IMG/VR virus record: IMGVR_UViG_3300042934_000398
Span: 1-64,000 of that record
DNA from: a virus
DNA length: 64,000 bases
Strand: one strand, 5' to 3'
Part shown: positions 12,481 to 47,601 of the stretch, one piece after another
Position numbering within the stretch: the stretch's first letter is position 1
Layout: the number at the start of each line of letters is the position of its first letter
Program-made: the position numbers and the translations under genes
The notes under the pieces: generated by a model
Databases searched by the model: none
What the model saw: the letters and a program-made list of their open reading frames with translations, nothing else
What the model was told of the DNA's origin: nothing

Positions 12481-12528
12481 ACCAGTAAACAAAACTAACA
12501 TTTTATCAAGAAAGTAGAGGGAATAAAC

Positions 12529-12795
12529 ATGGATTTACGACAAAAGTTAATTAACATCATTTACGATAGTAGTATTTCAGAAGTAACAGAAGATAAAAAC
12601 AATATACAATTGTTAGACTTAATCATGGATTCTTATTGTGACGATTTTATCTTATGGGAAAACGATATAACTATTCAAGAATTATCGGATATGATAAACA
12701 GTGAACGTATCCCAGAAAGTAAAAATCATTCTACTAATAAGGAACTAATAGAACAATTTACAGAAGGCTACAAATTCTTTTTAGGAATTGAATAA
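12529..12795 (+). CDS. Hypothetical protein
   Basis: GAGGG SD; flanked by junction palindromes. Confidence 0.65.
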   Translation: MDLRQKLINIIYDSSISEVTEDKNNIQLLDLIMDSYCDDFILWENDITIQELSDMINSERIPESKNHSTNKELIEQFTEGYKFFLGIE

Positions 12796-12907
12796 ACAGT
12801 CGATAAAATTAAGAATTGAATCGGTTTAGTGATATTAGGCTGTAGACGTGCAAACCGTCAATAAACCACTAACAGTAATAAAAATAATATTATATGGAGG
12901 AATAAGC

Positions 12908-13651
12908 ATGGCAAGTATAGAATTTATTACAAAGCGTATTCAAGGTAAACAAAAAGAGATAGAGAAGTTAAACAAAAAGCTTGAAAGAATTCAAAAAGCA
13001 AAACAATCTAATTGGCAAGTAAATCCTTATTACTATAGCGAATATGATTTAAACAGCACAGAAAAGGAATTGAACTATTGTATTAAACAGCTTGACGAAT
13101 TACAAAATGATTTACAAACAGCAAACGAAAAAGCAAACAGCCGTAATGTATTAGCAATAACACAATTTTTGGATGCATGGCTACAACGTAATATTGAATT
13201 TTACACAGCAGAAAAAGAAAAGTATAACATTGCTTTACAAGATTATTATCAGCACGATAGAGATTATTGTAATTGGTTTAATTCAAAAAGACACGACACG
13301 ACAAAAGAAGAAAGAAACGAAATCGAAAAGAATCACAAAGAGTATAGAAAGACATTCCAAACGTCATGGAGACATATAACACAATTTGACCACGGCGAAA
13401 AAGAATGGCACGAAACAATGATATCAGATTTAAAGCAAGAATATAACCGTAAATATGATTATATTATCGAAAAGACAAACGAAATAGTCGGAACTATTAC
13501 CGATGCAAGTTATCTAACAGTTGACACAAACGACAATCTAAACGGCTACATTATAGGCACTAGAGGGAAAGCAAGTGTTAATACAATAGGTGCAGGCGGT
13601 TACAATATACAATGCTATCATTTTAGAACTTTAATTCATGAGATAAAATAA
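12908..13651 (+). CDS. Coiled-coil phage protein
   Basis: GGAGG SD; C-terminal TIGAGGYNIQCYHFR motif. Confidence 0.7.
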   Translation: MASIEFITKRIQGKQKEIEKLNKKLERIQKAKQSNWQVNPYYYSEYDLNSTEKELNYCIKQLDELQNDLQTANEKANSRNVLAITQFLDAWLQRNIEFYTAEKEKYNIALQDYYQHDRDYCNWFNSKRHDTTKEERNEIEKNHKEYRKTFQTSWRHITQFDHGEKEWHETMISDLKQEYNRKYDYIIEKTNEIVGTITDASYLTVDTNDNLNGYIIGTRGKASVNTIGAGGYNIQCYHFRTLIHEIK

Positions 13652-13655
13652 TCAT

Positions 13656-13720
13656 GCAGAGGACTACCGCTTACATAGGGTAGTAATGCACTAGGCAATG
13701 CCTAACCGTTCCAAGTCGGT
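13656..13720 (+). ncRNA. Twister ribozyme, circularly permuted
   Basis: P1 CTACC/GGTAG, U^AA site, P2 TGC/GCA, P3 TAGGC/GCCTA, P4 ACCG-TTCCAAGT-CGGT, pseudoknots GGA/TCC and AC/GT. Confidence 0.7.
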
Positions 13721-13760
13721 AAATAAGCATAATATTAAAAAAAATGGAGGTTATAACAGT

Positions 13761-14096
13761 ATGATAATGGTAAACAATGCAGAATTGGAAACGATTGACG
13801 AAATGGCTCAAACACTTTTTGATTTATATTTGGATATAGCAGAAGATCAGCAAGTTAATATATTTGTAACGGATGAAACAGGAGACATTAATTCTAATTT
13901 ATTTATAACAAAGAAAGAAATATTGACACATGAAATAATTATACTTGGGAATGAAATATGTGCAGGTAGTCTTCATATGTTTTCACTTGACGAAGATGAA
14001 AGCAATTATATTACGGTTGAAGGAATAAAGTCTGTTTTAGATGGTTATGGATATTTAAACAAAGTTACTTATTATACACTTGATGATTTATTTTAA
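13761..14096 (+). CDS. Hypothetical acidic protein
   Basis: GGAGG SD before ATG at 13761. Confidence 0.65.
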   Translation: MIMVNNAELETIDEMAQTLFDLYLDIAEDQQVNIFVTDETGDINSNLFITKKEILTHEIIILGNEICAGSLHMFSLDEDESNYITVEGIKSVLDGYGYLNKVTYYTLDDLF

Positions 14097-14143
14097 ATCA
14101 CTTCAATAGGATAACTTATTAACTACAAAACTACAAATAAATG

Positions 14144-15052: not shown

Positions 15053-15101
15053 AAATAATAATAGACAAACTATTGACATTTAACTAGTAATATAGTAAAC
15101 T
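15053..15101 (+). promoter_or_regulatory. Operator motif plus sigma-A promoter
   Basis: AAATAATAATAGACA at 15053-15067, TTGACA at 15073, TAAACT at 15096. Confidence 0.65.
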
Positions 15102-17157: not shown

Positions 17158-17703
17158 GTGAATAGTAAAGAATACAGATACCATTATATTAAGATTGATA
17201 AGGAAGAACAGGCTCAAACAATATCTGATAAGTTATATTCAATGCTTGAAGTTGACGAGATAGACGGAGATTTTACAGAGGATAACATGACAACGATTGG
17301 TAACATTCTTTATGCGGTGAATGGTTCTTTTACTGGCGGAAATGGTGATAGTTATTACAATCCTACTTTTAAAGATGATGTAAAGTATATTTCTACAATG
17401 TTTCCTGAAATTACTTTTACTGCCGGATGGACTAATCCAGAGGACAAAGAAGACAAAGAACAATTTACTATTATAAACAATGATGTTATAGGAAATCAAG
17501 AAGTAGATAAGGCTAAACAGATGCTAATGTCATTCTATGAAAAGGCTAGAGAAGAATACGACAGACTAGAGCAAGAGTTTGAAGAGATAAACAGAACTAA
17601 TCCTAGTGGCACAGAATGGGCAACGTTACAGGATGCAATGATTATCTATTCTAATATTATAGATAAGCTTAGGCGTGAATATAACAAGTACAAGCAAAAA
17701 TAG
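17158..17703 (+). CDS. Hypothetical protein
   Basis: GGAGG SD, GTG start. Confidence 0.7.
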   Translation: MNSKEYRYHYIKIDKEEQAQTISDKLYSMLEVDEIDGDFTEDNMTTIGNILYAVNGSFTGGNGDSYYNPTFKDDVKYISTMFPEITFTAGWTNPEDKEDKEQFTIINNDVIGNQEVDKAKQMLMSFYEKAREEYDRLEQEFEEINRTNPSGTEWATLQDAMIIYSNIIDKLRREYNKYKQK

Positions 17704-17730
17704 ATTTGATATTGAATAGGAGGGGTTAAC

Positions 17731-17964: not shown

Positions 17965-18017
17965 GCAAATCAATGACTATTTTTATTAATATTTTAATAG
18001 AAGGAATGGTGAATTTT

Positions 18018-18308: not shown

Positions 18309-18478
18309 CGTTAAATACAAATAATAATACACATGTTTCACGTGAAACATATTAATGGAGGAAATAATTATGAACGATAATATATCTTTAACAGAAGAAC
18401 AGAAAGAATTTAATAAACAGGAAGCTAGGTCAAAATTAATCAATATTATATTGGAAAAAATAATGGAGGAAAAATTAA

Positions 18479-18915: not shown

Positions 18916-18965
18916 AAATAATAATAGACATACAGATTGACAAATTTAGTGAGCAGAGTTATAAT
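18916..18965 (+). promoter_or_regulatory. Operator motif plus consensus sigma-A promoter
   Basis: AAATAATAATAGACA at 18916-18930; TTGACA at 18937, 17 bp, TATAAT at 18960. Confidence 0.75.
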
Positions 18966-19036: not shown

Positions 19037-19219
19037 GTGAAGACTAAACAAGAAATATTAAAGGATCTATTTTGTACACTGGCAGAGTTACAAAGTGGAA
19101 CGGCTTCAGGAGATTTAGAAAACTACCTAAGAATTAAATTAGAAACACTATACAATTTGATGGGTGAAGACGTACCAGAGGAATATTGGGAACAGATAGA
19201 AAAAGAAATAAGTAAATAG
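19037..19219 (+). CDS. Hypothetical protein
   Basis: GGAGG SD. Confidence 0.65.
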   Translation: MKTKQEILKDLFCTLAELQSGTASGDLENYLRIKLETLYNLMGEDVPEEYWEQIEKEISK

Positions 19220-19262
19220 CAATTAGAATATTGATTCCATTTGGAAATTAGGAGGGTTTAAA

Positions 19263-20108: not shown

Positions 20109-20158
20109 TAAGCACAACAATTGAACACTTTATTGGGTTTTTGAAAGGAGAAATAATT

Positions 20159-23569: not shown

Positions 23570-24541
23570 ATGGGATTAGCACAGGTTAAACAGGAAGAAA
23601 AAATAGAGTGTAGTATAATTATGTTTCCACAAGATAATATAATAGAAAAAAAAGAGGAAGATACTGTAAAAGAAATTAAATTGAGACTAGATGGCACACC
23701 TAAGATTATCGTTAGGAATAAGAAAAAAGGTCAGAAGTCTGAAGTATATCCATTCAGGACACAAGAAGACATTAAAAACATGATGAATTATTTTATCGAC
23801 AATAAATCATGGCACAGCTATTTATTATTTGTCTTAGGTATCAATATGGCTAGGCGAGTGGGTGATACCTTAAACCTCACATGGAAACATTTTTATTTTC
23901 CAAATGGCAGAATGAGAAGTGATGTACTTGAATTTGAGGAAGAAAAAACAGATAAATTTGCTAATCCTAGAATTAATAATGCTTGCCGTGAAGCTATTAA
24001 ACTATTTATAGAGAAAACTGAAGTAGAACCTATGGAGAATTACGAGAAACCTGTATTTATGCAACTATCTGGGACTGGTAAAGGAAAGGTGTTTTCAAAG
24101 TCTGGTTATTGGGTTAATTTGAAAAAGGCTGCTAAAGCTTGTAATATAGGATACAACATAGCAGCACATAGCACTAGAAAAACTTATGGATATTGGAGTA
24201 GAAAACTCCACCCAAACGATACAGATTCCATGCAAATATTACAGTCAACTTATAATCATTCGTCTGAATCTGTTACTAATAAATATATCGGATTAACAAA
24301 GGAAAAAATAGATCAGTATTACGACGATATGGGTGATTTCTTTACAGAGTATATTATGGGTGACAAACAGTTTCAAAATACAGAGAACAAACCTATTGTA
24401 TCACTTGATAGTAATGATTTAAGGGACATAATAACAATGGCTTATCAGGAAGGCAGAAAGAACGCTAGTAATAATGATATAGATAGCAATTTAGATATTG
24501 TTAATAGTATTATGGATTTAGCAGAAGAGTTGATGAAATAA
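23570..24541 (+). CDS. Tyrosine recombinase, catalytic-domain type
   Basis: GINMARRVGD (R), EEKT (K), HSTRK (HxxR), NHSS (H), NKYIG (Y); own TAGACA-17-TATAAT promoter. Confidence 0.9.
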   Translation: MGLAQVKQEEKIECSIIMFPQDNIIEKKEEDTVKEIKLRLDGTPKIIVRNKKKGQKSEVYPFRTQEDIKNMMNYFIDNKSWHSYLLFVLGINMARRVGDTLNLTWKHFYFPNGRMRSDVLEFEEEKTDKFANPRINNACREAIKLFIEKTEVEPMENYEKPVFMQLSGTGKGKVFSKSGYWVNLKKAAKACNIGYNIAAHSTRKTYGYWSRKLHPNDTDSMQILQSTYNHSSESVTNKYIGLTKEKIDQYYDDMGDFFTEYIMGDKQFQNTENKPIVSLDSNDLRDIITMAYQEGRKNASNNDIDSNLDIVNSIMDLAEELMK

Positions 24542-24579
24542 ACAGACTACTAACAACTATTAAACGGAGGATTAATTAA

Positions 24580-24825
24580 ATGGGTTTATTAGGAAGTATA
24601 GCAGGTATATTATCGATGGGTGGATTAGATAATCATAATGTTAATCAAAAGATAAAACAAATGGATGACGATCCTAATTGTACAACTAAAACTGACAGGT
24701 GGTATAGAGAACATAATACTACACCGGAAGAGCAAGAAAAGTTGAGACTGAGAGAATCAATGATATATAGAAAAGAACATGGAATGACATATTATTTGAA
24801 TGATGATGATTATAGGTTGAAATGA
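24580..24825 (+). CDS. Hypothetical protein
   Basis: GGAGG SD. Confidence 0.6.
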   Translation: MGLLGSIAGILSMGGLDNHNVNQKIKQMDDDPNCTTKTDRWYREHNTTPEEQEKLRLRESMIYRKEHGMTYYLNDDDYRLK

Positions 24826-24860
24826 ATAAATCAGAGCTTTGATTTGGAATGGAGGTAAGT

Positions 24861-25082
24861 ATGAAAGTATCAAAAGATATTCAATATAAAATGCACAAAG
24901 CAGCTAGACTGCACTCAGAAGCAAATAAATTAATGGAAGATGTAAATGATTATTTTGAAAAGAATGGAATAGATGAAGATGTATTGAGATGTGGGAATGG
25001 AATATCGCTAGAAGAGGTTGAACTTGGAAACGATATAGTGGATGAATTTGTGTCATGGGCAGAAAATGATTTTGAATTATAG
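24861..25082 (+). CDS. Hypothetical protein
   Basis: GGAGG SD; flanked by palindromes. Confidence 0.65.
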   Translation: MKVSKDIQYKMHKAARLHSEANKLMEDVNDYFEKNGIDEDVLRCGNGISLEEVELGNDIVDEFVSWAENDFEL

Positions 25083-34788: not shown

Positions 34789-35061
34789 GTGGTGAGAAAT
34801 ATAAAAACGTCAAATCAGAAAGGAGTGTACCAATGCCAGTCTTGTAACACAATATTTTATAGCAATAAAATAAGAAAGGTGCAAACAGAGCATGAGACAT
34901 ATAAATGTTCCTGTCCAGAGTGTGACAGTGAAGACTTGAAGTTAATTGATTTATTGGTAGATGAAGAAGAAAATACATATAAGAACGATAAGTTTTATGG
35001 AGTTGGTAACAGATTAAAGAAAATGTACGAATGGGATGAATATGTAAGTATGAGATGCTAA
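34789..35061 (+). CDS. Zn-ribbon protein
   Basis: CQSC...CPEC. Confidence 0.6.
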   Translation: MVRNIKTSNQKGVYQCQSCNTIFYSNKIRKVQTEHETYKCSCPECDSEDLKLIDLLVDEEENTYKNDKFYGVGNRLKKMYEWDEYVSMRC

Positions 35062-35111
35062 AGATAGAAGATAATAATAAACTATTAAAATGATTATAAA
35101 AGGAGAATGTT

Positions 35112-35330
35112 GTGGAAAGTATTTTAACAGATGAACACAAAGAATTAATTAATAAAAAGATTAAGAAGGCAATTAATGATTTAGATTTTACTGAAATTTT
35201 AGCTGAATATATAGAAAAAGAATTAGATACTATTTATGATGGTGCAGGTATTAAAGAAAATCTTGAAAGTATGGTAATGGAAGTAATTAGGCAAAATTTA
35301 GTAAAAAGTGGTTTATTGAAAGATAAATAA
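35112..35330 (+). CDS. Hypothetical protein
   Basis: AAGGAG SD. Confidence 0.6.
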   Translation: MESILTDEHKELINKKIKKAINDLDFTEILAEYIEKELDTIYDGAGIKENLESMVMEVIRQNLVKSGLLKDK

Positions 35331-35372
35331 GCACAACAAATGGTTGTTTGGTTATAAAGAGAGGAGAATAAT

Positions 35373-36170
35373 ATGTTTTTTAAAAAGAAAGAAGATACAA
35401 CACATAATGAATATGAAATTAATACAAATGAAAATAACACATTAGAAGGAAATGAAGAAAAAACTGACAAAACAGAAGAAGAATGGATTTGGGTAGAAGG
35501 TTATAAAGGTACAGATAAAGACATGAAGTGCCGTGATATGCAATATGAGTTAAATAAGACGTATGAACACGAAGGTAAAATTGAATTATGTGAATCAGGG
35601 TTTCACTTCTGTAAAGAATTAAGTAATGTTTTTGGATACTATTCATTAGATAATGGTAATAGATTTTTCAAGGTAAAATGTCTAGTAATTAAAGATAAAT
35701 GGGAGTCGGGCGACAATAAATTCACTGCCAAAGAAATTATTTTTACAGAAGAATTAGGATATAAAGAATTAGAAAAATTTATTATTAAAAAATATTCATT
35801 TGTACATAACAAAAATGAATGGAATGAACTAAGTGAAATTGGTATTAAGAAATTTTACAGAAAGTATTTTATGAGTATTATGTCAGATGCTGGTTATGGA
35901 GAAACATTTTCTAATATCTTATATGATGATATAAATAAGAAAATCGAAGAAATAGAGTCTGAAAATAAGAGAAGATACATAGAGGCAAATTCTTATAGTA
36001 ACATATATTATCCAAACCAATATATTTCAAAGCCTGTAAGAAATCCATTTTATATTTATGAGCCATCATATGATTATACTAGATTCGACGAATTGATTAA
36101 TAAAGTAAAAGCATTTCAAGAAGAGGGATTATCAAAAGATATGTCGGTTTATTTACTACTGAAAAGGTAA
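35373..36170 (+). CDS. Phage protein (DUF7666-like N-terminal domain)
   Basis: GYKGTDKDMKCR...IELCESGFHFC. Confidence 0.65.
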   Translation: MFFKKKEDTTHNEYEINTNENNTLEGNEEKTDKTEEEWIWVEGYKGTDKDMKCRDMQYELNKTYEHEGKIELCESGFHFCKELSNVFGYYSLDNGNRFFKVKCLVIKDKWESGDNKFTAKEIIFTEELGYKELEKFIIKKYSFVHNKNEWNELSEIGIKKFYRKYFMSIMSDAGYGETFSNILYDDINKKIEEIESENKRRYIEANSYSNIYYPNQYISKPVRNPFYIYEPSYDYTRFDELINKVKAFQEEGLSKDMSVYLLLKR

Positions 36171-36275
36171 TCAAAAGCGCATTTCATTTGGAATTTGAAA
36201 GGAGAGAATAATGAGGAAATTAGCAAGTGTTAAAGTAGTAAGTGATATGATGCCAATTGAAGGAATGTGGATGTA

Positions 36276-36893
36276 ATGGGTAAATATAGTGGTTTAAAAA
36301 TTGGTGATAAATACAATAATTGGACTGTTGATTCAGAATGTTACAAAGACAAGAACGGTTCTGATGTTTACATGTGCAACTGTATTTGTGGAGAAAGAAA
36401 GCAAGTAGAAGGAAAGGCTTTAATTCTTGAAAGAAGTAAATCATGTGGGTGTATAAAAAGAGTAAATGCCGAAGAACAAAAGAAACGCATTAAGGAATAT
36501 AAAGCAAAATATTTTCAGGAAAACAAAGATAAAATTTATAAAAGAACTATTAATAATCAAAGATTACAAAGAGAAAAAGATATATAAGAATTTGGTATAG
36601 ATAGGTATTCTTTAAAAAGTAGATATAATATTTCACTTGAACAATATAAAGATTTATTAGATAAACAAAATAACAAATGTTGCTTGTGTAATGTCTTATT
36701 TGATAAAGAAGATAATTCAAAAAGACCATGTATCGATCATAACCATGAAACACAAATTATACGCGGAATCATATGTAAGAATTGTAATTCTGCACTTGGT
36801 ATGTTTAAGGATAATACTTTAGTTATGAAAAATGCAATAGAATATTTAGAAAGAGATGGTATATATAATGATGAGAAAATTAGCGCATATTGA
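36276..36893 (+). pseudogene. Endonuclease VII/HNH homing endonuclease with one in-frame stop
   Basis: CNCICG...SCGC N-terminal domain; TAA at 36585; same frame continues YNISLEQY...CCLC...IDHNHET...RGIICKNCN. Confidence 0.75.
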
Positions 36894-37950
36894 AAAAATT
36901 GAATGGTTAAGTCCTATTAAAGATAGGGATAAAATTGAATTAGTAGGGGTTTCTGGTTGGCAATGCATAGTAAAAAAAGGGGAATTTAATATTGGTGATA
37001 AATGCTGTTACATAGAAATTGATAGTGTAATGCCAGAGACTGAACAATTTGAATTTCTAAGAAGTAAAAAGTTTAGAATTAAAACTATGAAGATGGCAGG
37101 AGTAATCAGTCAGGGTATTTGTTTCCCATTAAGTATTTTGCCAGAAGGTGATTATGAATTAGATCAAGATGTTACTGAGATTTTGGGAATTAAACAGTAT
37201 GAAGAAACAATGGACATTGAAAGAAATGCACCAGCATCATCAGATAGTAAAAAGAAATATCCTAATTTCTTAATGAAATTTAATTGGTTTAGAAAGTTGG
37301 TATTACCAAAGAAACAAGCTAAAGGATTTCCAGAATTTATTAGTAAAACAGATGAAACTAGAATTCAGAATGCACCATTTTATTTACAAAACAAAAACGA
37401 ATGGACAGCAACAGAAAAGGTTGATGGTCAATCAGGAACGTTCTTTTTAAGAAAAGAAAAATGTAAACGAATATTTAAAAAGACTACATATGAGTTTGGA
37501 GTATGCTCTAGAAATCTTAGAATCTGGAATGAAGATAGTTCTTCATATTGGACTGTAGCTAAGAAGTATAATATTAAACAAGTGTTATTAAATAATATTG
37601 GTGATAATGAGTTTATGGCTATTCAAGGTGAATGTATAGCTGCTAATGTACAAGGAAATAAATACAAGGTTACTGCGCCAGATTTATATGTGTTCAATGT
37701 ATTAACTCCAAATGGAAGATTAGGCTCTGTAGAAGCAAAAGAATGGGCTGAACAGAATGGATTGAAATTTGTACCTATAATTGATGAACATTATATCTTA
37801 CCTGATAGTGTAAAAGAAATATTAGCATATGCACATGGAGAAAGTAAATTATATCCAACATTAAGAGAAGGTATCGTGTTTAGAAGTAAAGATGGAAAAC
37901 AGAGTTTTAAGGCAGTTGATCCACTTTTCTTACTAAAACATGATGAATAA
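36871..37950 (+). CDS. RNA ligase (Rnl2/DRB0094-like, N-terminal OB fold)
   Basis: MRKLAHI, EIDS, KTDETRIQN, TEKVDG motif I, QGE, REGIV, SFKA. Confidence 0.88.
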   Translation: MRKLAHIEKIEWLSPIKDRDKIELVGVSGWQCIVKKGEFNIGDKCCYIEIDSVMPETEQFEFLRSKKFRIKTMKMAGVISQGICFPLSILPEGDYELDQDVTEILGIKQYEETMDIERNAPASSDSKKKYPNFLMKFNWFRKLVLPKKQAKGFPEFISKTDETRIQNAPFYLQNKNEWTATEKVDGQSGTFFLRKEKCKRIFKKTTYEFGVCSRNLRIWNEDSSSYWTVAKKYNIKQVLLNNIGDNEFMAIQGECIAANVQGNKYKVTAPDLYVFNVLTPNGRLGSVEAKEWAEQNGLKFVPIIDEHYILPDSVKEILAYAHGESKLYPTLREGIVFRSKDGKQSFKAVDPLFLLKHDE

Positions 37951-37995
37951 TACTATAAGATCATTCTTTGAATCGGTTTTGAGAAAGGGGTAAAT

Positions 37996-38259
37996 ATGAC
38001 AGAAGAAAATAAGAAAAGATGTAGAGAAGAAATTGAGTTAAGAAACTGGAATAAGTTAGGGATTATTGAACCAAATGTATCACCTTTAGTATGGAATAAA
38101 GAAGTTGAATTAATGTATGAGGATATGGATGGGCAACCATGTAGATGTAATGCAATTTATGTTCATAATAGTTTTGGTTCAGATTATTTTCAAGCGACAA
38201 ATGGGATGGCTAAAGGGAATCGTATGAGTAGTTGTATCGCTTATAGAGAATTAAAATAA
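37996..38259 (+). CDS. Hypothetical protein
   Basis: SD after palindrome. Confidence 0.6.
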   Translation: MTEENKKRCREEIELRNWNKLGIIEPNVSPLVWNKEVELMYEDMDGQPCRCNAIYVHNSFGSDYFQATNGMAKGNRMSSCIAYRELK

Positions 38260-38278
38260 ACTTATAGAGGTAGATAGT

Positions 38279-38515
38279 ATGAAATATTATTACAGTGAAG
38301 ACCTGATAAATATTATTATGATATGTAATCAAGATGAAAGTGATATAAATAATATTGTTGCTCAAAGCCTTATAAAGAGATGTGAAAAAGCAATGGCTTG
38401 TAGTGATATAAAAATACGTTTTACTAAAAGAGATAGAGATTTTCTTTTGGATAAAATGTGGAAAGATATAGATGAAAATGCTAGGTTTACAATTATGCGA
38501 ATTATGGGAGTGTAG
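38279..38515 (+). CDS. Hypothetical protein
   Basis: GAGG SD. Confidence 0.55.
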   Translation: MKYYYSEDLINIIMICNQDESDINNIVAQSLIKRCEKAMACSDIKIRFTKRDRDFLLDKMWKDIDENARFTIMRIMGV

Positions 38516-38780
38516 ACACAATAATAATTTAAATAAAGTAGACTTATAAGGAGGATTTATGAGTAGTGATTTTAAAGATAGACTTTTAAAACGATCAGAT
38601 AATAATTGTGAAAATGTTTTAGATAACCATGATGTAGATGACTATTATGAGGACGAAAATAACTACAATGATGATGATTGGAACGAATACGTAAATGACT
38701 ATTATGAGAATTATGTAGCAAAATATTCGGATTAATTACGATGAAACTATACTTTGATAGGAAAATGAAAGGAGAAATAA

Positions 38781-39176
38781 ATGAAATTTGAAAGTAAATT
38801 TGAGTTAGGACAGCAAGTATGGGGTACAGTTATTAATGATAAAAGTACATATGAACCAGTGGAATGTGATTTATGTGATAGCACAGGGTTTGTCATCGTA
38901 AAAGGGAAAGATGTAGAATACATTTGCCCTCAATGTTTTGGAGACAAACAATATAAGAAATTAGGTAAAGAAATGACAATCTGCAAAACTGGTAAAATAG
39001 GCAAAATATGTGTAGAACAGTATGATAGTCAATATAAAAATACAAGTGGAACAAAATATATGATCGACAAAACAGGAGTAGGAAGTGGAACTGTGTGGCG
39101 TGAAGAAGAATTATTTGCATCCGAAGAAGAAGCTCAAAGGGCTTGCGATGAATTTAATAAAAACAATTTACTATAA
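38781..39176 (+). CDS. Hypothetical protein with two CxxC motifs
   Basis: AAAGGAG SD; flanked by palindromes. Confidence 0.7.
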   Translation: MKFESKFELGQQVWGTVINDKSTYEPVECDLCDSTGFVIVKGKDVEYICPQCFGDKQYKKLGKEMTICKTGKIGKICVEQYDSQYKNTSGTKYMIDKTGVGSGTVWREEELFASEEEAQRACDEFNKNNLL

Positions 39177-39217
39177 AGGACGAATTTTATCGTGAAATAG
39201 AAGGGATGTGACAGATA

Positions 39218-40405
39218 ATATATAAAACAAAAATAATACCAGTTAAGTGTAGCAAAACTGATTATCATTATTTATTGAGACTGAACAAATTGTCAGCCGA
39301 AGTTTGGAATTATTGCGTGAAGATTGATAAAGAATATTATACAAATAATAAAAAATATATGGATATGAGAACTATACAAACAGCAGTTAAGTGTTATAAC
39401 AATCTTCACGCAAAAGGAATTTACTATGTTTATAGAAAGTATATGTTTGCAAGAGATTCAATGTTTAGGTCAATTAAAGCAAAGCATGATACAAGCAATA
39501 AAGTAAAATTACCTTATAAGAAAAAGAAGTATTTTAATACAGGTTGGGATTATCAAAGTATTAAATATGATTTTGAGAAAGGATTGATAAAATTATCAAG
39601 ACCAATATCGCATGATGAAAATGGTAAGAAAATAAACAATCCACCTGTCAAATGTTATACAAAAAACATTCCACAAGATATTAAAGAGATTGAATTGGTA
39701 TATCGTAATGGATTATATTTAGTAATTAAATATAAGGAAGAAGATATACAACAATTAATTCAATCCAATAATTCAGCGGCTATTGATCTTGGAGAAATAC
39801 ATAGCATTACATCTATAGATAATAATGGACATGCAATAATTATTACTGGAAGAAAATTAAGAAGTATCAAGAGGTTAAGAGATAAAGAACAAGGTAAATT
39901 AAGAAGTAAAATGTCGAAATGTAAAAAGCATAGTAAACAATATAAGACATATAGAAATGCATTATGGAATTTAAAGTATAAGACAGAAAGGCAGATATTT
40001 GACTGTGTTCATAAGATATCAAAATTATATCTCGATTACTGCTTAGAGAATAATATTTCTAAAGTTTACTATGGTGATTTAGACAACTGCACTCGAAATT
40101 CATCTGAAAAGATTGGTAAAATGGTTGGTCAGAAATTAAACGAATGGAACTATGGAGAACTCACTTTACAGCTACGAAACAAATTGGAACGATATGGAAT
40201 AGAAATGATAAAAGTAAGTGAAGCATATAGTTCTCAGACCTGTCCTCATTGTGGAAAGCGTCACAAGCCAAATTCTCGTAACTATGATTATAGGTGTGGT
40301 TATCATCAGCACAGAGATTTGGTAGGAGCAATAAACATTCTTAATTTCAATGAAGACATTAAACAAGAATATCATACAAGTTTTAAGTATCTACGGATAG
40401 AGTAA
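39218..40405 (+). CDS. tnpB: TnpB (IS200/IS605 OrfB) RNA-guided nuclease homolog, probable ATA start
   Basis: AIDLG (RuvC-I), YYGDL, EAYSSQTCPHCG, HRDLVGAINI; no tnpA nearby. Confidence 0.85.
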   Translation: MYKTKIIPVKCSKTDYHYLLRLNKLSAEVWNYCVKIDKEYYTNNKKYMDMRTIQTAVKCYNNLHAKGIYYVYRKYMFARDSMFRSIKAKHDTSNKVKLPYKKKKYFNTGWDYQSIKYDFEKGLIKLSRPISHDENGKKINNPPVKCYTKNIPQDIKEIELVYRNGLYLVIKYKEEDIQQLIQSNNSAAIDLGEIHSITSIDNNGHAIIITGRKLRSIKRLRDKEQGKLRSKMSKCKKHSKQYKTYRNALWNLKYKTERQIFDCVHKISKLYLDYCLENNISKVYYGDLDNCTRNSSEKIGKMVGQKLNEWNYGELTLQLRNKLERYGIEMIKVSEAYSSQTCPHCGKRHKPNSRNYDYRCGYHQHRDLVGAINILNFNEDIKQEYHTSFKYLRIE

Positions 40406-40486
40406 TCTAAAGTAGTAGATGGCTAGGTTGGAGTCCTAAGTAGTCCGTTGTAATTTGACGAGAAATTTTCAGTAATGAAAAAGCCA
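40381..40486 (+). ncRNA. Putative omegaRNA/right-end scaffold of TnpB
   Basis: Hairpins TATCTAC/GTAGATG, TAGA/TCTA and TAGG/CCTA overlap and follow the stop codon. Confidence 0.4.
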
Positions 40487-40533
40487 ACCAAATATAATTT
40501 TGATTTGATTAGAAGAAATGAGGTGATTTTACG

Positions 40534-40944
40534 ATATTTTATTGTCCAAAATGCAAGAAGTTAGATATTAATTTTAAAATGAATTCAGACATTCCACATG
40601 TAGTAAACATCAGAGATGGTTACGGACACCCTCTTTATCATATGAAGTGTGAATGTGGAAATTATCTATCAGCAGGAATCCATTTTACAAAGGAAGAAGT
40701 AGAAAAGGATTCTGGTTTACTTGATTATATTAAAGAGGTTATCACTGGTTATAACAAAGATGGATGTTTTTATATGGATGGCTATTATAAATATGTGGAA
40801 GATAGAATAAACAAGATAGAACAACGAAATAAAGAAGTATTAGAAGAACGAGCAAGAATTTCTGTTATGAGTGAATTAGAAAAGAAAGAATATTTTGAAA
40901 AGAAATATGAAGAAATGATGAAACGGCTAGGAGAGGAGAAATAA
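40534..40944 (+). CDS. Zn-ribbon protein, probable ATA start
   Basis: Frame extends upstream to IFYCPKCKK after GAGGTG SD; also CECG. Confidence 0.55.
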   Translation: MFYCPKCKKLDINFKMNSDIPHVVNIRDGYGHPLYHMKCECGNYLSAGIHFTKEEVEKDSGLLDYIKEVITGYNKDGCFYMDGYYKYVEDRINKIEQRNKEVLEERARISVMSELEKKEYFEKKYEEMMKRLGEEK

Positions 40945-40945
40945 T

Positions 40946-41242
40946 ATGGAAAGATTAACTAAGATTACGACAAGTGGATTTGATAATAAGAAAGTTGACA
41001 CAGAAGATTATAGCGTATATGAATTATTACAAATGGTATTAGGCAAGTTGGCAGCATATGAAGATACAAATTTAATGCCTGATGAAGTGGAAGAACTACA
41101 AGGACGAATTGAACATTTGCAAAAATTCTATGATTACTTTTGCGAATTATATGGTACAGGTTTAGATGTCGCTAACTGGCATTTAAATGGAGATCTAGAA
41201 CCGTTTGATAACTTTTTCGATAGTGCGGAAGAGTCAGAATAA
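40946..41242 (+). CDS. Phage protein
   Basis: MERLT...KLAAYEDT. Confidence 0.7.
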   Translation: MERLTKITTSGFDNKKVDTEDYSVYELLQMVLGKLAAYEDTNLMPDEVEELQGRIEHLQKFYDYFCELYGTGLDVANWHLNGDLEPFDNFFDSAEESE

Positions 41243-41285
41243 ATGTGACATTTTATTATGATATTTAATAAGAAAAGGAGATAAT

Positions 41286-41777
41286 ATGAGACAAATAAGA
41301 AGAAATGTATTTGAAACAAATTCAAGCAGCACACATAGTATTTGTATTACCAGTAGAGATAAGTTATTAAATATTCCTAAATCAATCCACTTTAGATTAG
41401 GTGAATTTGGATTGGAATGTGAAAATTATCATGATAGCTCATCTAAAGCAGAGTATCTATATACAGCAATTATGTGTTGTGAAAGAACAAAACTATTAGA
41501 AAAGATTAAAGAATACTTAGATAAAAATGGAGTTGAGTATTCGTTTGATGAACCAAGATATTATACAGGAACATATGGCACATGGATTGATAACGCAAGT
41601 ATTGACCATACAGAAGATTTACCAGAAATTATTAATGATATTTGTGGCGATGAAGTTAAGTTGCTTAGATATTTATTTTCAGAAGAAAGCTTTGTTTTAA
41701 CAGGAAATGATAATGATGACGAAGATGTAGATATTAACGTTGACTATGAACATGTAGAATATTATAAAGGAAATTAG
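41286..41777 (+). CDS. TNSSS-motif protein A
   Basis: MRQIRRNVFETNSSSTHSICI. Confidence 0.75.
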   Translation: MRQIRRNVFETNSSSTHSICITSRDKLLNIPKSIHFRLGEFGLECENYHDSSSKAEYLYTAIMCCERTKLLEKIKEYLDKNGVEYSFDEPRYYTGTYGTWIDNASIDHTEDLPEIINDICGDEVKLLRYLFSEESFVLTGNDNDDEDVDINVDYEHVEYYKGN

Positions 41778-41790
41778 GAGGATAAATAAT

Positions 41791-42177
41791 ATGAAACAGA
41801 TTAGACGTGGAGTTTTTGAAACAAATAGTAGTAGTACTCATTCAATTACAATGTGTTTAAAATCCGATTATGATAGATGGGTAAAAGGTGAGATTCTTTT
41901 ATTTAAAGGAAGCGGATGGTCATTTGAAGAAGGATATAAACCACAAAAGAATAATTTTTATACAAGAGCTGAAGCCATTGAGTTTATGAAACATGATAAG
42001 TATTGTTCTAATGATACTAATTGGGACGACAACGATGCGGTAGATGAAATACTTAGAGAAAATGAGTTTGTAGATTCTGATTATGAAAATGACGAATTAG
42101 AATGGTACGAAGAAACATACATCACACCATCAGGAGAAGAAGTAATTGCTTTTGGTGAATACGGATATCAGGGTTAA
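41791..42177 (+). CDS. TNSSS-motif protein B
   Basis: MKQIRRGVFETNSSSTHSITM. Confidence 0.75.
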   Translation: MKQIRRGVFETNSSSTHSITMCLKSDYDRWVKGEILLFKGSGWSFEEGYKPQKNNFYTRAEAIEFMKHDKYCSNDTNWDDNDAVDEILRENEFVDSDYENDELEWYEETYITPSGEEVIAFGEYGYQG

Positions 42178-42191
42178 GAGGAGAGAATAAT

Positions 42192-43091
42192 ATGAGACAA
42201 TTGGGAATGTACATAAACGGTAATTATAAAGTAAAGATATTTAGTGATGGAACAAAGGTAAGAGAAACAAATGAAAATGAGTTTATCGCTGCATTCCCTG
42301 AGAATATGGATGTAAAGATAACAAATCAATGTGATATGGGATGCATCTTCTGTCATGAAGATAGTAAGATTGATGGAAAACATGGAGATATTCTTAATCA
42401 AATATTTATTAATACTTTGCACCCATATACTGAAATGGCAATAGGTGGTGGTAATCCATTATCTCATCCAGACTTAATTCCTTTCTTAGAGAAGCTAAAA
42501 GTGAAGAAGATTATTGCAAACATTACAGTTAATCAAGTTCATTTTGAAACTAGTCAAGAATTAATTAAGAAGTTGGTTAATGAAAAGTTGATTTATGGAC
42601 TAGGTGTGTCTCTTGTAGATGCTTCAAAAGGATTTGTAGAGTTGATTAAGCAATATGATAATGCTGTAATTCATGTTATTAATGGAGTTTTGAAACCTTC
42701 TGATATTGAAGTTTTAAAAGACAATGATTTAAAAATGCTTATTCTTGGATACAAACACTTTAGAAGAGGTATTAGTTGGTATGAAGTAAGACAGGACGAT
42801 ATTACAACAAAACAGGAATGGCTATATAAAAATCTAGCAGAAATCACAAAGCAGTTTAAAGTAGTTAGTTTCGATAATCTAGCGATTGAGCAACTTAATG
42901 TAAAAAGATTGATGAGCGAGAAAGATTGGAATGAGTTTTATATGGGAGATGACGGCATGTACACCATGTATGTTGATCTTGTTAATCAGAATTTTGCTAG
43001 ATGTTCAGTGGCAGAAAAAAGATATGGGTTACTAGATAATATTGAAGATATGTTTAACATAGTTAGAGATGAAAAACTGGCAATGAAATAG
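42192..43091 (+). CDS. Radical SAM enzyme
   Basis: ITNQCDMGCIFCHE (CxxxCxxC), GGGNPLSHP. Confidence 0.9.
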   Translation: MRQLGMYINGNYKVKIFSDGTKVRETNENEFIAAFPENMDVKITNQCDMGCIFCHEDSKIDGKHGDILNQIFINTLHPYTEMAIGGGNPLSHPDLIPFLEKLKVKKIIANITVNQVHFETSQELIKKLVNEKLIYGLGVSLVDASKGFVELIKQYDNAVIHVINGVLKPSDIEVLKDNDLKMLILGYKHFRRGISWYEVRQDDITTKQEWLYKNLAEITKQFKVVSFDNLAIEQLNVKRLMSEKDWNEFYMGDDGMYTMYVDLVNQNFARCSVAEKRYGLLDNIEDMFNIVRDEKLAMK

Positions 43092-43567
43092 AAAACTTAT
43101 TTGCTTTTGGAAAGGAAGATATATGACCATTAAAGATTTATATGTTTATGCTCAAGAACGAGGTATTGAAAACTGCGAAGTAGAAATTCAATATGCTGAT
43201 GGCGGTGGATGTTATCATGGTACAAGAGATTTAAATGAGCACGATATAGAAGTAAAAGAAGAAAGTTATGGTAAGATAGTTGTTTTGTAAAAATAGAATA
43301 AATTCGATATTCGATTAAGAAAGGAGAGTTATTATAATGGAAAATGATAAATGTGTATTCTTTAGTAAAGATGATTTCAGTGAAGAATCATGGGAAATAC
43401 TTTGTTCAGAGTTTGAAGTAGATTCAGAACAATCAAGTTTTTGTGGACATATTATTGTAGAGGAAGATGATTCATTTGACTTGGATGATGACGATGATGA
43501 AGAGTAATAAATAATATTAGACAACAAAACAAGTGATTGATGTTCTTATTGGAAAGGAGGAGTTGCC

Positions 43568-43810
43568 ATGATGTCGTCATCTTTTACAGCAGGTGGTAGG
43601 TTATTTTGCTCTTATTGCGGCAAAGAAATGCTTAATTGTAAGTGTAATTGTGAAAAAGCTAAAAAGGATATCGAAATTCAAAACGATATATTTATAAGTC
43701 AAGAAAATTTAAGAATTTTAATTTCAGAGAGACTTTCGGAAAAAGATATTAGAAAAATACAGATTGAAGAAGATATTAAAGCATTAAATAATGAACTTAA
43801 ATCATTATAA
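43568..43810 (+). CDS. Hypothetical protein
   Basis: AAGGAGG SD; CSYC. Confidence 0.6.
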   Translation: MMSSSFTAGGRLFCSYCGKEMLNCKCNCEKAKKDIEIQNDIFISQENLRILISERLSEKDIRKIQIEEDIKALNNELKSL

Positions 43811-43848
43811 ATTGAGCCTTTTATCGACTTTGGAAAGGAGTAATTAAA

Positions 43849-44115
43849 ATGTGTACTGAGAAACAAAATGGTTATCAACCAACAAATAAAGTATCAGGAT
43901 GTGTACCACCTTCAAATGGTTCAGTTTTTGATGTTAATTCAGACGATAAGACATGTGACAATTGTATCAAATCTGACGTTTGTAATATAAAAGAAGATAT
44001 AATCAAATCGACTGAAGATATCTTTAAAATTGTTAATAGTATAGAGGATAAAATAAAAGTTTCTATTTCTTGTAATAAGTTTGCAGCAAAAAATAAATAT
44101 ACAGGAATAAGATAA
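43849..44115 (+). CDS. Hypothetical protein
   Basis: AAAGGAG SD. Confidence 0.6.
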   Translation: MCTEKQNGYQPTNKVSGCVPPSNGSVFDVNSDDKTCDNCIKSDVCNIKEDIIKSTEDIFKIVNSIEDKIKVSISCNKFAAKNKYTGIR

Positions 44116-44141: not shown

Positions 44142-44189
44142 AAATAATATCAAACAAGTATTGACAATATATAAATAATAATATACAAT
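44142..44189 (+). promoter_or_regulatory. Sigma-A promoter with two operator motifs
   Basis: Motif at 44142; TTGACA at 44161; second motif at 44173-44187 overlapping the -10 TACAAT. Confidence 0.65.
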
Positions 44190-44811: not shown

Positions 44812-46223
44812 GAAAAACGTTCTTAGATGATTTACCTGTAAATTATAAGGGAATAGATTGGACTCATTGTTTGGGATATGAAATTAATTTTATATATGAC
44901 GATATAATAGGAATAATTAAAATTATTAAGTATAACAAAGATAAGCAAACTTTAATAGTAAAATACAAAGATAAAATAAAACTAATAAAATGTAATAGTT
45001 TAAAAAACGCTTATTTAGCAAATGTTATTGGAAAACAATCTAAATGGTTTAAGCTTGAAATTAGTACAAAAATCAAAGATAACAAGCGTAATTTAACTAT
45101 ATTAGATCAAGAATATCGCCGAGATAGTAAAGAACGGAAATGGAAATGGTATAGATATAAGTGCAATGTATGTGGTTGGGATAATGGATGGATTGAAGAA
45201 AATCGTTTATTATCAGGAAAAGGATGTTCATGTTGCGATGGCAAGACTGTTGTTGAAGGAATTAATGACATCCCAACTACTGCTCCATGGATGATTCCAT
45301 ATTTCAAATGTGGTTATGATGAAGCGAAGTTATATACACGTCGATCACAGCAAAGAATATATCCTATTTGTCCTGATTGTGGAAGAGTAAAACAAAATAG
45401 TATACAAATATATTCGATTTATGAAAATCATTCAATAGGATGCATCTGTAGAGATGGTATATCATATCCAAATAAATTAATTTATTATGTTATAGAACAA
45501 TGCAAAAATCAATTTTATTCTTATGTAAGAGAATATAGTCCAGAATGGGCGATGGGTAAATTTTATGATTTATACTTAAAAACATTAGATAATAAAGAAT
45601 ATATTATTGAAATGGATGGTGCTATAGGTCATGGTAATAAAATATTACCTAATTCAGAGATTACATTACAAGAAAGCATAGAAATAGATAATTTAAAAAA
45701 TAGCTTAGCCAATGAACATAAAATTGATATAATCAGAGTTGATTGTATACAAAGTGATTTAGAATACATAAAAAATAATATTTTAAATAGTAGAATTAAT
45801 AATATCCTAGATTTATCAAGTGTTAATTGGAAACAATGTGATGAAATGGCAACAAAAAGTTTGGTTAAAATAGTATGTAATATTTACAGTAAAAACACAT
45901 TATTATCGACGGCAGATATTTCAGATATGGTAGGTATTCATCAAAGCACTGTGAGAGTATATTTGATTAAAGGTACAAAATTTGGTTGGTGCAAATATAA
46001 TCCTGAAGAAGTCACAAATAAAAATCACATAAAAATTTGGGATAATAATCGTAAAAAAGTTATATGCACAACAACAAATAAAAAATTTAATTCAATAATA
46101 GAAGCGTCAAAATATTATGGATTAAAATCTTCATCTGGCATAGGTGAATGTTGTAATAAAAAAATAAAGTCAGCTGGAAAATTGCCTGACGGAACAAAGC
46201 TACAATGGGAATATATTAGATAA
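44808..46223 (+). CDS. Putative homing endonuclease (Zn fingers, PD-(D/E)xK-like core, IENR1/NUMOD-like tail)
   Basis: CNVC/CSCC/CPDC, YDLY...IIEMDG, KKVICTTTNKKFNSIIEASKYY. Confidence 0.7.
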   Translation: MRKTFLDDLPVNYKGIDWTHCLGYEINFIYDDIIGIIKIIKYNKDKQTLIVKYKDKIKLIKCNSLKNAYLANVIGKQSKWFKLEISTKIKDNKRNLTILDQEYRRDSKERKWKWYRYKCNVCGWDNGWIEENRLLSGKGCSCCDGKTVVEGINDIPTTAPWMIPYFKCGYDEAKLYTRRSQQRIYPICPDCGRVKQNSIQIYSIYENHSIGCICRDGISYPNKLIYYVIEQCKNQFYSYVREYSPEWAMGKFYDLYLKTLDNKEYIIEMDGAIGHGNKILPNSEITLQESIEIDNLKNSLANEHKIDIIRVDCIQSDLEYIKNNILNSRINNILDLSSVNWKQCDEMATKSLVKIVCNIYSKNTLLSTADISDMVGIHQSTVRVYLIKGTKFGWCKYNPEEVTNKNHIKIWDNNRKKVICTTTNKKFNSIIEASKYYGLKSSSGIGECCNKKIKSAGKLPDGTKLQWEYIR

Positions 46224-46258
46224 GCAGACCAATGATGCTTTTTATTGGGATTTAGGAG

Positions 46259-46708
46259 GTGAGACAAATGAAATTAAAGGATAAAATTAGGCATAAACTA
46301 ATAAAGTTTCTATTGATAGACGAGGTAGAAAAAAATTGTATTGAAGAAACTAAAAACGTCAAAAGAGAATTAGATAAAGAAATACTTCATTTAAATAGTG
46401 GATGCGATAATTTATTTCAGTCTATAAGGCAAATAGATGCAAATGTTAAAAATAATAAAGAATCAATAGATATATTACATAATACAATCAGAAATGTAGT
46501 TTCGGTAGGAGCAGATGTAATTCCATATGAAAATAATAGAAGTTGGGCGGTAGTTTGTATAGAAGGAAATTATAATCTTGTCAAATTTATTGATTTACAT
46601 GGTGCAGACTATAGGCAGATTTTAAACTTTCTCAAACAATATGAAGGTTCAAGAATGGTTGTTGATGCACCTAACCCAAGATATTTTGAGAGTATGTTTA
46701 AGTTTTGA
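46259..46708 (+). CDS. Hypothetical protein
   Basis: AGGAGG SD; flanked by palindromes. Confidence 0.65.
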   Translation: MRQMKLKDKIRHKLIKFLLIDEVEKNCIEETKNVKRELDKEILHLNSGCDNLFQSIRQIDANVKNNKESIDILHNTIRNVVSVGADVIPYENNRSWAVVCIEGNYNLVKFIDLHGADYRQILNFLKQYEGSRMVVDAPNPRYFESMFKF

Positions 46709-46758
46709 TAAAAGTTGTATTTTATTGTAAATAATATAAATCATAGGAGGTGAAATAA

Positions 46759-46986
46759 ATGAGTAATAGTAGTTCAAAAAGTAGTAGTGGAATGGGAGTA
46801 TTGGGAGTATTGCAGATAGTATTTATTGTTTTAAAGTTATGTGGAGTTATTAAATGGTCATGGTTAACTGTATTTATTCCGCTTTGGATTGAATTAGCTT
46901 TAGTAGCAATTGTATTAATTATTATTGCAATAGCTGGTAAATCAGTTGGTGGAAGGAAGAATAGGAGCAATAAAATCAAATGGTAG
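46759..46986 (+). CDS. Small membrane protein
   Basis: LQIVFIVLKLCGVIKWSWLTVFIPLW. Confidence 0.75.
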   Translation: MSNSSSKSSSGMGVLGVLQIVFIVLKLCGVIKWSWLTVFIPLWIELALVAIVLIIIAIAGKSVGGRKNRSNKIKW

Positions 46987-47185
46987 AATACATAGTTAAG
47001 AGTCAATTAAATCAATCACAATCAAACTTAGTAGATGCATTTAAATTAGAATGTTCTGCTTCTGATATTAAGCAAAATAAAGAAGCTAAAAGGCTTGCGA
47101 GATATATCAATAAGCATGGTAAAAGAACTGATAGGATTTGTAACATGATATCTAAGTTATGTAAATAAAATTTGGAGGAATTAAG

Positions 47186-47386
47186 ATGGGCATTTGTGAA
47201 GTGCTAACAATTATTTTTGTGATCTGTAAGTTATTAGGTGTTATTTCTTGGTCATGGTTTTTAGTATTATTACCGGAGATTATTGCAGTGGTGTTGTATG
47301 TTTTGATTTTTGTATTTCAAGTATCAATATTTAAGAAAGCTACAAAGAATTTTGATAAATTCGATGACAAATTTTTTAAGTTCTAA
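47186..47386 (+). CDS. Small membrane protein, paralog of 46759..46986
   Basis: LTIIFVICKLLGVISWSWFLVLLP. Confidence 0.75.
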   Translation: MGICEVLTIIFVICKLLGVISWSWFLVLLPEIIAVVLYVLIFVFQVSIFKKATKNFDKFDDKFFKF

Positions 47387-47601
47387 TTAAGGAGAGAGAT
47401 GATATGTTTAGGATTAACAGTCCACCTAATTACAAATAATAATAGACAACATATGGTGTATTGCAAGTAATCAACAACAATATATAGACGATAAAAGCAC
47501 ATCAATTCGGGGTTTTATTCGGTATTTATAACCACATAAATAGATAATAATAAACAAGGCAACTATTAAAAATTATAATACATAATAAGGAGAAATAAAA
47601 T

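Follow-up and report, generated by a model that had tools for sequence, protein, structure and literature searches.

An 18-bp palindrome with a fixed six-base spacer as a probable joint between accessory genes in distant SPbeta-like phages

The mosaicism of phage genomes has long been ascribed to conserved boundary sequences between modules. Clear and testable examples are rare, the main one being the promoter-early stem-loops (PeSLs) of T4-type phages, which are mobile regulatory cassettes (PMC2839356, PMC4122927). We describe here an 18-bp imperfect palindrome found between the accessory genes of a virus known from the IMG/VR record IMGVR_UViG_3300042934_000398. The window analysed is the first 64 kb of this 99.4-kb contig (G000; 28% GC, completeness about 61% by CheckV). 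To judge from its proteins, the virus is a distant SPbeta-like temperate phage of soil. We consider it probable that the 18-bp sites serve as fixed joints between accessory gene slots in this clade.

Several described systems resemble the site in part. Xer/dif, pdif, loxP and FRT sites have inverted arms (11-13 bp conserved) around a centre of 6-8 bp, identical centres recombine, and in the pdif modules of plasmids genes are bracketed by such sites. The window site also has inverted arms around a centre, strictly of six bases, and partner sites share the central region, but only 6 bp per arm and a G at position -3 are conserved. The closest published analogue is the PeSL (PMC2839356). In both cases a short conserved intergenic element flanks small accessory or ORFan genes in hyperplastic regions, and it is within this element that the insertion, deletion and replacement breakpoints of close relatives fall; for PeSLs, a shuffling of modules by recombination between copies has been proposed. 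A PeSL, however, consists of a sigma-70 promoter and a GC-rich terminator stem-loop, whereas the window site is an AT-rich dyad at promoterless junctions, forms no stable stem, and has at each joint its own spacer, common to the exchange partners. The stoperators of Cluster A mycobacteriophages are protein-binding sites with up to about 30 copies across the genome (PMC6550527); here too there are tens of copies in short intergenic gaps, about 26-34 per genome at junctions. Stoperators, in contrast, are 13 bp long, asymmetric, oriented with transcription and bound by a monomeric immunity repressor (PMC6550527, PMC9283540) that also binds the operator of the early promoter, whereas the window site is symmetric and the promoters bear a different, 15-bp box. 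SPBRE, the operator of the SPbeta repressor MrpR (PMC10516654), is another AT-rich imperfect inverted repeat, several copies of which adjoin a Shine-Dalgarno sequence (SD), and it is read by a protein with a tyrosine-recombinase fold. Its half-site and spacing differ (ATACA-N7-TGTAT), its spacer is conserved, and its roughly ten copies are promoter-proximal; moreover SPbeta holds both SPBRE and a junction palindrome, and ChAP-seq peaks of MrpR are seen only at SPBRE promoters. We found no published description of the gene-junction palindrome in the literature.

The element is real, but the consensus and the number first given for it were loose. A preliminary description of this DNA had written the palindrome as ATYAAA-N6-TTTRAT and counted about 45 copies. 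The five examples it cited (at 27666, 38741, 36170, 25090 and 43807) are all present, but none of them fits that consensus, which has one match in 64 kb against 0.63 expected. Allowing at most one mismatch gives 20 matches against 11.5, and at most two gives 122 against 114, which is chance. Generic 6-N6-6 inverted repeats likewise show no excess across the window as a whole. The signal lies in the segments between a stop codon and the next SD: in the plus-strand block 45 of these 90 junctions hold an inverted repeat with at least five of six pairs at spacer 6, compared with 28.1 +/- 3.6 in dinucleotide shuffles, with weak enrichment at spacers 4 and 8 and none at odd spacers. The expectation that the motif would be commoner at junctions than in shuffled or coding DNA is thus borne out, with the spacer-6 excess found only in stop-to-SD segments. 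A family pattern, ANNAAW-N6-WTTNRT, matches 27 junctions at spacer 6 against 1-6 at spacers 2-11; in coding DNA its frequency is about 0.5 per kb whatever the spacer, and half-sites by themselves show no enrichment. In the 11-48 kb part of the window, strict copies in junction context number 21 for N6 and 2-8 for other spacers, and one-mismatch copies 85 against about 63, an excess of about 20. A realistic figure for the window is therefore about 22 strict and 10-20 degenerate copies.

Other parts of the first description stand. The spacer is exactly 6 nt and its sequence varies between copies, and the site overlaps or follows the stop codon and precedes the SD, the left arm lying -1 to +11 nt from the stop and often including it (A-TAA-AA, A-TGA-AA). 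From the end of the right arm to the next start there are about 16-34 nt. Both arms follow a single half-site consensus, AT[C/A]AAA. Outside positions 1-6 and 13-18 the information content is at background except for the G at -3, which often appears as TAAGCAN; tails such as GTNCTTNTTGAAAGGAG also recur. EM motif discovery on upstream regions returned only the SD, and the most enriched 6-mers came mainly from the SD and a promoter box.

The palindrome is confined to one part of the genome. From 11.3 kb onward the genes of the window lie on the plus strand, and the accessory region is split by two terminators and some ten strong promoters, each heading a multi-gene operon, with the sites at junctions within operons. 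Palindromes are present at 34 of 99 junctions in the accessory arrays, whereas the replication block (47.6-64 kb) and the block at 77-85.6 kb, with 22 junctions between them, have none, although the junctions there have ordinary SDs. No copies lie at minus-strand junctions or inside the radical-SAM trio, as had been noticed before, and the junctions within the trio, at 13-14 nt, are too short for a site. Only one junction carries both a palindrome and a TTGACA promoter, against 3.7 expected. The site-bearing accessory operons are probably early.

The evidence that the sites are joints comes from genome comparison. The prediction that boundaries of gene gain, loss and replacement would fall at the sites is upheld against a 97-99% identical relative. 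G001 (38.5 kb) shares 13 colinear blocks with the window at 76-99.8% identity. A single gene (46234-46726) is 99.8% identical in G001 within a backbone of 85% identity. The near-identity begins at the first spacer base of the site ACCAAT-gatgct-TTTTAT (46228-46245), where the left arms of the two genomes differ, and ends one base past the right arm of ATAAAA-gttgta-TTTTAT (46708-46725); the 85% backbone resumes at the first base of ATCAAT-tcgggg-TTTTAT (47501-47518). At ATAAAA-taacta-TTTTAT (27666-27683) G001 has an insertion of about 1 kb (L095 6990-7999) between two copies whose spacers, TAACTA and GAACTA, are the same at five of six bases. The insertion has its own AT-rich upstream region, a 259-aa ORF and a 48-aa ORF; the 259-aa protein has weak AP2 and zinc-ribbon domain matches, below the Pfam cut-offs, and in our reading may be homing-endonuclease-like. 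The linker at ATGAAA-ctatac-TTTGAT (38741-38758), comprising site, spacer and SD, is 92% conserved between G000 and G001 while both flanking genes differ, and Logan contigs branch here. G001 homology stops 1 nt past the right arm of ACCAAA-aacgat-TTTGAT (25090-25107) and begins at the left arm of a degenerate copy, ATAGAT-tgacga-TTTGAT (27290-27307), and ATCAAA-ctggta-TTTGGT (33361-33378) forms the right end of a 1.4-kb five-gene block that is absent from G001. An automated pipeline placed 9 of the 29 intergenic G000/G001 block ends in strict-site windows, against a null of 7.4% (p=1.7e-4), with block starts at -3 to +6 and block ends at +16 to +18.

The same geometry was found in the SPbeta group, where the numbers are larger. 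Seven genomes gave 280 de-duplicated block ends, 150 of them intergenic, and 58 of these 150 fell in site windows that make up 6.8% of intergenic positions (p=1e-28). SD windows of the same size, taken as a control, showed no breakpoint enrichment in this group (1.1x, p=0.43). A breakpoint was present at 39 of the 43 junctions with a palindrome and at 41 of the 91 without one (odds ratio 11.9, p=2e-7). Blocks tend to start at the left edge of the site and to end at its right edge; both genomes thus have the complete site in common, together with its spacer, and the crossover falls within the site. On these alignments the sites appear to be preferred crossover joints that the partners share in full. 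Nucleotide divergence between G000 and G005 is too great for fine breakpoints. In the independent pair L127/G005, the junction after a conserved 49-aa gene shares the left arm and spacer (GTCAAA-TGGAAG, 12/12) and then diverges; the same comparison has a 51-nt shared island consisting only of linker, and L098 ends at an arm/spacer boundary. The alternative arrangements also coexist in nature: over 24000-43999 of the window, in runs X2 and X3, one soil metagenome (X3) held both the G000-type arrangement, at a depth of about 6-8, and the G001-type, at about 28-33. Logan contigs reproduce the differences seen in G001; the reading of their joints was confined to those with more than 30 nt on each side.

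The palindrome is a property of the phage lineage and is N6-specific each time. Junction matches at N6 number 20 in G005 (116 kb), against 0-6 at other spacers; 14 in L127, against 1-5; and 33 in G009, the complete 140-kb genome that contains L127, against 6-12. In L038 the palindrome is present at 8 of 18 junctions and TTTGAT directly adjoins GGAGG. The proteins of these lineages (G005, L038, L127/G009) are only 40-80% identical to those of the window. Each genome has about 25-35 copies, in short intergenic gaps of one operon set, and none in replication or structural blocks. The early region of SPbeta carries a sister form, TAAAA-N6-TTTTA, with 14 copies at N6 and 0-2 at other spacers, and the seven SPbeta-group genomes together have 72 against 0-6. 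The two forms share an AAA-N6-TTT core, the strict spacer, a position between the stop codon and SD of small early genes, and breakpoints at the site edges. They differ in that the SPbeta form is TAAAA-N6-TTTTA(A), whereas the window clade has an outer A1/T18 and a variable third base (ATMAAA-N6-TTTKAT). The GenBank record of SPbeta (L129) annotates two 'palindrome' features (misc_feature), at 77856-77871 and 82394-82411, near yopM and yopS. L001 and L002, which carry integrase homologues and have 43% GC, were set aside as not being relatives. A search of viral contigs with the exact extended-tail pattern gave no match, and a metagenome scan and a further viral scan revealed no new close relatives.

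What reads the palindrome is probably a protein. Among 63 copies from two genomes we found no covariation at the three free arm positions (permutation p=0.97, 0.16 and 0.29), and the mean minimum free energy of the 26-nt element is -1.3 kcal/mol, compared with -0.8 for shuffles, with many copies at zero. Because the arms are symmetric, do not covary and have negligible fold energy, the palindrome would be a double-stranded DNA site recognised by a dimeric protein; a hairpin under selection, in RNA or in single-stranded DNA, would look different. The arm consensus is constant while promoter operators and repressors diverge, so this reader is probably conserved, either host-encoded or a conserved phage protein. 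The host motifs cre, CodY, ComK, FNR, ARG box, IHF and dif presumably do not fit the spacing of the palindrome.

Each joint thus consists of two symmetric AT[C/A]AAA half-sites exactly 6 bp apart, placed between a stop codon and the next SD at a promoterless junction. In related genomes an identical joint, in its spacer as well as its arms, stands beside different genes on one side or even on both, and crossovers take place inside the joint that both parents share. As to how, we tentatively prefer a mechanism by analogy with dif/lox, in which the protein would promote breakage and rejoining between same-spacer copies, giving allelic exchange between co-resident phages or prophages. Somewhat less likely, the primary job of the site would be regulatory, and ordinary short-homology recombination would use the joint passively. 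With either mechanism accessory genes would be swapped slot by slot, leaving neighbouring genes undamaged.

Several observations weigh against this reading. About 60% of the intergenic breakpoints in the SPbeta group lie outside sites, and about half of the G000/G001 block ends lie elsewhere, at promoters, at SDs or within genes; crossovers thus prefer the joints but are not confined to them. Some G000/G001 crossovers fall outside the 18 bp: those at 38741 lie 3 nt ahead of the site and past the SD, and that at 33361 lies at the SD. The shared identity of 16-18 bp exceeds that of a shared SD, so passive homology could favour the joints, and the mixing and matching of half-sites within a genome is mostly explained by SDs and A-rich gene ends. 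The strongest statistics come from the sister form in SPbeta, the window clade being represented by one close pair only. Finally, hybrids of phi3Ts and SPbeta made in the laboratory recombined in long homology at 15 of 16 joints (10.1101/2020.05.06.055103), and in such stretches a crossover cannot be localised.

An alternative is that the palindrome is first of all an operator, bound by a dimeric repressor or roadblock that silences or times the early operons in the manner of stoperators, with recombination a by-product, as has been proposed for PeSLs. General homologous recombination would then cross over at the sites because otherwise unrelated neighbours have no other sequence in common. 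We regard this as possible but on balance unlikely. A symmetric protein site in tens of copies, restricted to one operon set, is what such a regulator would use, and the way the right arm adjoins the SD in L038 recalls several MrpR sites in SPbeta. Proteins with a tyrosine-recombinase fold serve as repressors in phages of this family (PMC10516654), SPbeta-like phages engage actively in general recombination (10.1101/2020.05.06.055103), and PeSLs provide a precedent (PMC2839356). However, the promoters bear a different, lineage-specific box, and the restriction of MrpR ChAP-seq peaks to SPBRE promoters means that a second regulator would be required. SD windows, which are conserved too, attract no breakpoints. 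Spacers also appear to be conserved at syntenic joints of diverged genomes, which a regulator indifferent to the spacer would not need.

The phage does encode a candidate repressor. The ORF at 29766-30764 (plus strand), which looks like a second recombinase, is instead an MrpR/YopR-type homologue (Pfam MrpR_N_CB 4e-14; blastp to SPbeta YopR 6e-6); it aligns end to end with SPbeta YopR/MrpR, and its top sequence matches in the PDB are MrpR/YopR entries. SPbeta MrpR is a repressor with a tyrosine-recombinase fold but without recombinase activity (PMC10516654). Upstream, at 28514-29779 on the plus strand, lies a YopQ-like gene (blastp to SPbeta YopQ 1e-6) that is kept alongside the arrays in G001, G005 and G009, and our assignment of the phage as distantly SPbeta-like rests on these two proteins and the PDB matches. 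The segment 28017-30789 consists of a PemK/MazF-like gene (ORF 28017, 3e-22), a promoter (28446), the YopQ-like and MrpR-like operon and a terminator (30772-30789). The MazF/YopQ/MrpR trio is syntenic in G001, G005 and G009 and so constitutes a lysogeny-control module of the SPbeta type, in a phage very remote from SPbeta: the identities are about 20% for MrpR and about 25% for YopQ.

The operator of the MrpR-like protein is probably not the palindrome but a 15-bp non-palindromic box, ACAAATAATAATARACA, found 4-6 nt upstream of TTGACA promoters (for example at 15057-15072, 18921-18936, 34645-34661, 44143-44160 and 61231-61247). The box has 30 strand-biased copies in G000, 18 in G001 and 0-3 in G005, L127 and L038, and G005 promoters carry AAATAACATATAAAACAA in its place. 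It is analogous to SPBRE and behaves like an immunity operator that co-diverges with its repressor. We assign the protein to the box because the box is lineage-specific whereas the palindrome consensus is shared; this, together with the confinement of SPbeta MrpR peaks to SPBRE, makes the MrpR-like protein a disfavoured reader of the palindrome.

Returning to the joints as sites of directed exchange, the strongest form of that proposal is a dedicated system, in which a conserved dimeric enzyme would cut and rejoin two joints with the same 6-bp address. We find this rather doubtful as it stands. The enzyme might be a small array-resident tyrosine recombinase (YopP in SPbeta), for which the candidate in the window is the ORF at 23570-24541 (plus strand; Pfam Phage_integrase 2.5e-12), inside the array. 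It is intact, as first reported, and retains the catalytic R, K, HxxR, H and Y, but the catalytic fold is preceded by no more than about 60 residues; these are too few for the usual core-binding domain, so the protein would suit short arms. By sequence it has no solved relative. Its counterparts in G001 and G005 match it at only 35% identity. The complete, palindrome-rich G009 has no close homologue: its in-array recombinase is a marginal relative (E=1e-4 to the G001 allele) with a weak similarity to YopP (E=0.002). Palindrome-poor genomes (G006 and G011) also carry genes of this type. Among genomes with the same arms, the relatives of 23570 are 20-35% identical or undetectable. The recombinase locus in the window, 23570-24541, and its counterpart in G001 (2590-3360) share only this 35% identity within flanking DNA that is 93-97% identical, and the gene thus looks like a swapped allele itself. 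If a dedicated system of this kind does exist, co-resident phages would trade accessory and anti-defence genes one slot at a time and without flanking homology.

Integron attC sites are 57-141 bp long and adopt a folded single-stranded form; their recombination is the work of a dedicated IntI, encoded beside attI and the promoter Pc. The preliminary description had proposed an integron-like system for the window, in which recombinase 23570 would excise promoterless cassettes as circles, insert them at any site and tolerate different 6-bp spacers. Part of this cassette idea stands. The arrays are mostly of promoterless genes with an inverted repeat just past each stop, as in integrons; the site-bearing junctions lack promoters, the genes are read from an upstream promoter, and breakpoints fall at the sites. 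The 6-N6-6 geometry fits a recombinase core site, a small recombinase lies within the arrays of G000, G001, G005 and G009, that of the window with its catalytic residues, and the G001 insertion sits between two copies with nearly the same spacer. The integron-like details are not supported. At 18 bp, without a fold or covariation, the site has nothing attC-like about it. Recombination between heterologous spacers, of the Tn916 or integron type, is contradicted by exchange partners that share the entire site, and matches between non-orthologous spacers are at chance (about 20 pairs against 20.6 expected), so that exchange appears to be between same-spacer copies. The only insertion flanked by sites, that in G001, is not a simple promoterless cassette, having its own upstream region and an ORF with AP2-domain similarity. 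The recombinase scores 20.3 bits against a cut-off of 220 on the XerA/integron-integrase model and 22.9 against 329.6 on XerD, and its relatives diverge while the arms remain the same. Reading the intergenic regions, we noticed no attI-like double site beside 23570, although no dedicated search was made. Taken as a whole the integron-like proposal is improbable.

A hairpin in the polycistronic mRNA, serving to process it, to stabilise 5' ends or to tune translation of the downstream gene, is rejected as very improbable. The sites always lie between stop and SD on the coding strand of operons, and the phage has genes for a MazF-like endoribonuclease and for an RNA ligase, but the fold energy is negligible and compensatory change is absent. 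At arm pair 2/17 the commonest mismatch is C.A (8/26), with G.U in only 1/26, and in the replication and other blocks the junctions lack the site although their SDs are normal. An artefact of composition, arising from stop codons and A-runs, T-rich leaders and an AT-rich genome, has practically no chance of being correct: the stop codon is often within the left arm and the consensus as first written is at chance across the window, but the spacer scan refutes it, with a ten-fold excess at spacer 6 only, no enrichment of half-sites alone, an arm-to-arm distance that is fixed while the offset from the stop varies, and the same signal in four other genomes.

The remaining copies follow the same pattern along the array. 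The first, ACAAAA-ctaaca-TTTTAT (12489-12506), is strict, lying 11 nt past a stop and 23 nt before a start. AGCAAA-aataga-TTTGAT (17693-17710) overlaps the stop codon, ATCAAT-gactat-TTTTAT (17969-17986) is preceded by TAAGCAA, and AGCAAT-tagaat-ATTGAT (19218-19235) and ATAAAT-cagagc-TTTGAT (24826-24843) stand at junctions. The stop lies within the left arm, as TGA in ATGAAA-cttaaa-TTTGAT (25365-25382), and again in ATGAAA-tgtata-ATTGAT (27005-27022). A probable copy, ATCAAT-acaaga-ATTTAT (32516-32533), is 26 nt past a stop and is followed by the SD-like AGAAAGGAAG. Further along, ACCAAT-tatatg-ATTGAT (33725-33742) has the tail GTTCTTTTTGAAAGGAG, AACAAA-tggttg-TTTGGT (35335-35352) is preceded by TAAGCAC, and ATCAAA-agcgca-TTTCAT (36170-36187) is at a junction, as are ACAAAA-caagtg-ATTGAT (43524-43541) and ATAAAT-tgagcc-TTTTAT (43807-43824). 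ATAAAT-gtgaca-TTTTAT (41239-41256), again with the stop in its left arm, is the left boundary of the radical-SAM trio. Among degenerate copies, AACAAT-tgaaca-CTTTAT (20116-20133) follows TAAGCAC and agrees at eight of nine fixed positions, and two others are ATCACA-gtagac-ATTGAT (32789-32806) and ATAAAA-ttaaat-TTTTAC (33062-33079).

A TnpB/Cas12f-like gene (39275-40405; OrfB_IS605 and TNB domains) lies in the accessory array with a palindrome on either side, the degenerate ATAAAG-gacgaa-TTTTAT (39173-39190) upstream and ACCAAA-tataat-TTTGAT (40487-40504) downstream. After the site at 36170 a good SD and ATG are found from 36212 onward, where a crude ORF caller had put the next start at 36276, and there is probably an unannotated small ORF here. 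A 49-aa Cys-rich protein (31772-31921), 66% identical in G005 and G009, is among the best-conserved proteins common to all palindrome-bearing genomes. In the replication block a DnaE-type polymerase of 1534 aa (54329-58933) is interrupted by an intein that bears a LAGLIDADG homing-endonuclease domain (Pfam, residues 733-1168). A 61-nt intergenic gap holds TGTTTCACGTGAAACA (18334-18349), which fits the pattern TGTTNCACGTGAAACA with no mismatches (0.17 expected at two or fewer); we take this pattern to be the canonical parS centromere palindrome of ParB/Spo0J. The parS-like sequence suggests that the prophage may use the host ParB or replicate as a plasmid.

SPbeta-like phages are reported to carry alternative anti-defence genes at the same locus in different phages (10.1101/2023.05.01.538930). 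The work described here adds an 18-bp site of strict geometry that marks the gain, loss and replacement of accessory genes across phage lineages whose proteins are otherwise only 40-60% identical, with a sister form in the genetically tractable model phage SPbeta, where either outcome can be tested. If a protein targets the joints, they would reveal a new way in which viruses exchange genes in a directed manner, and phage engineers could use them as ready standard connectors; if none does, they would be an unusually clean case of modular exchange by short homology.

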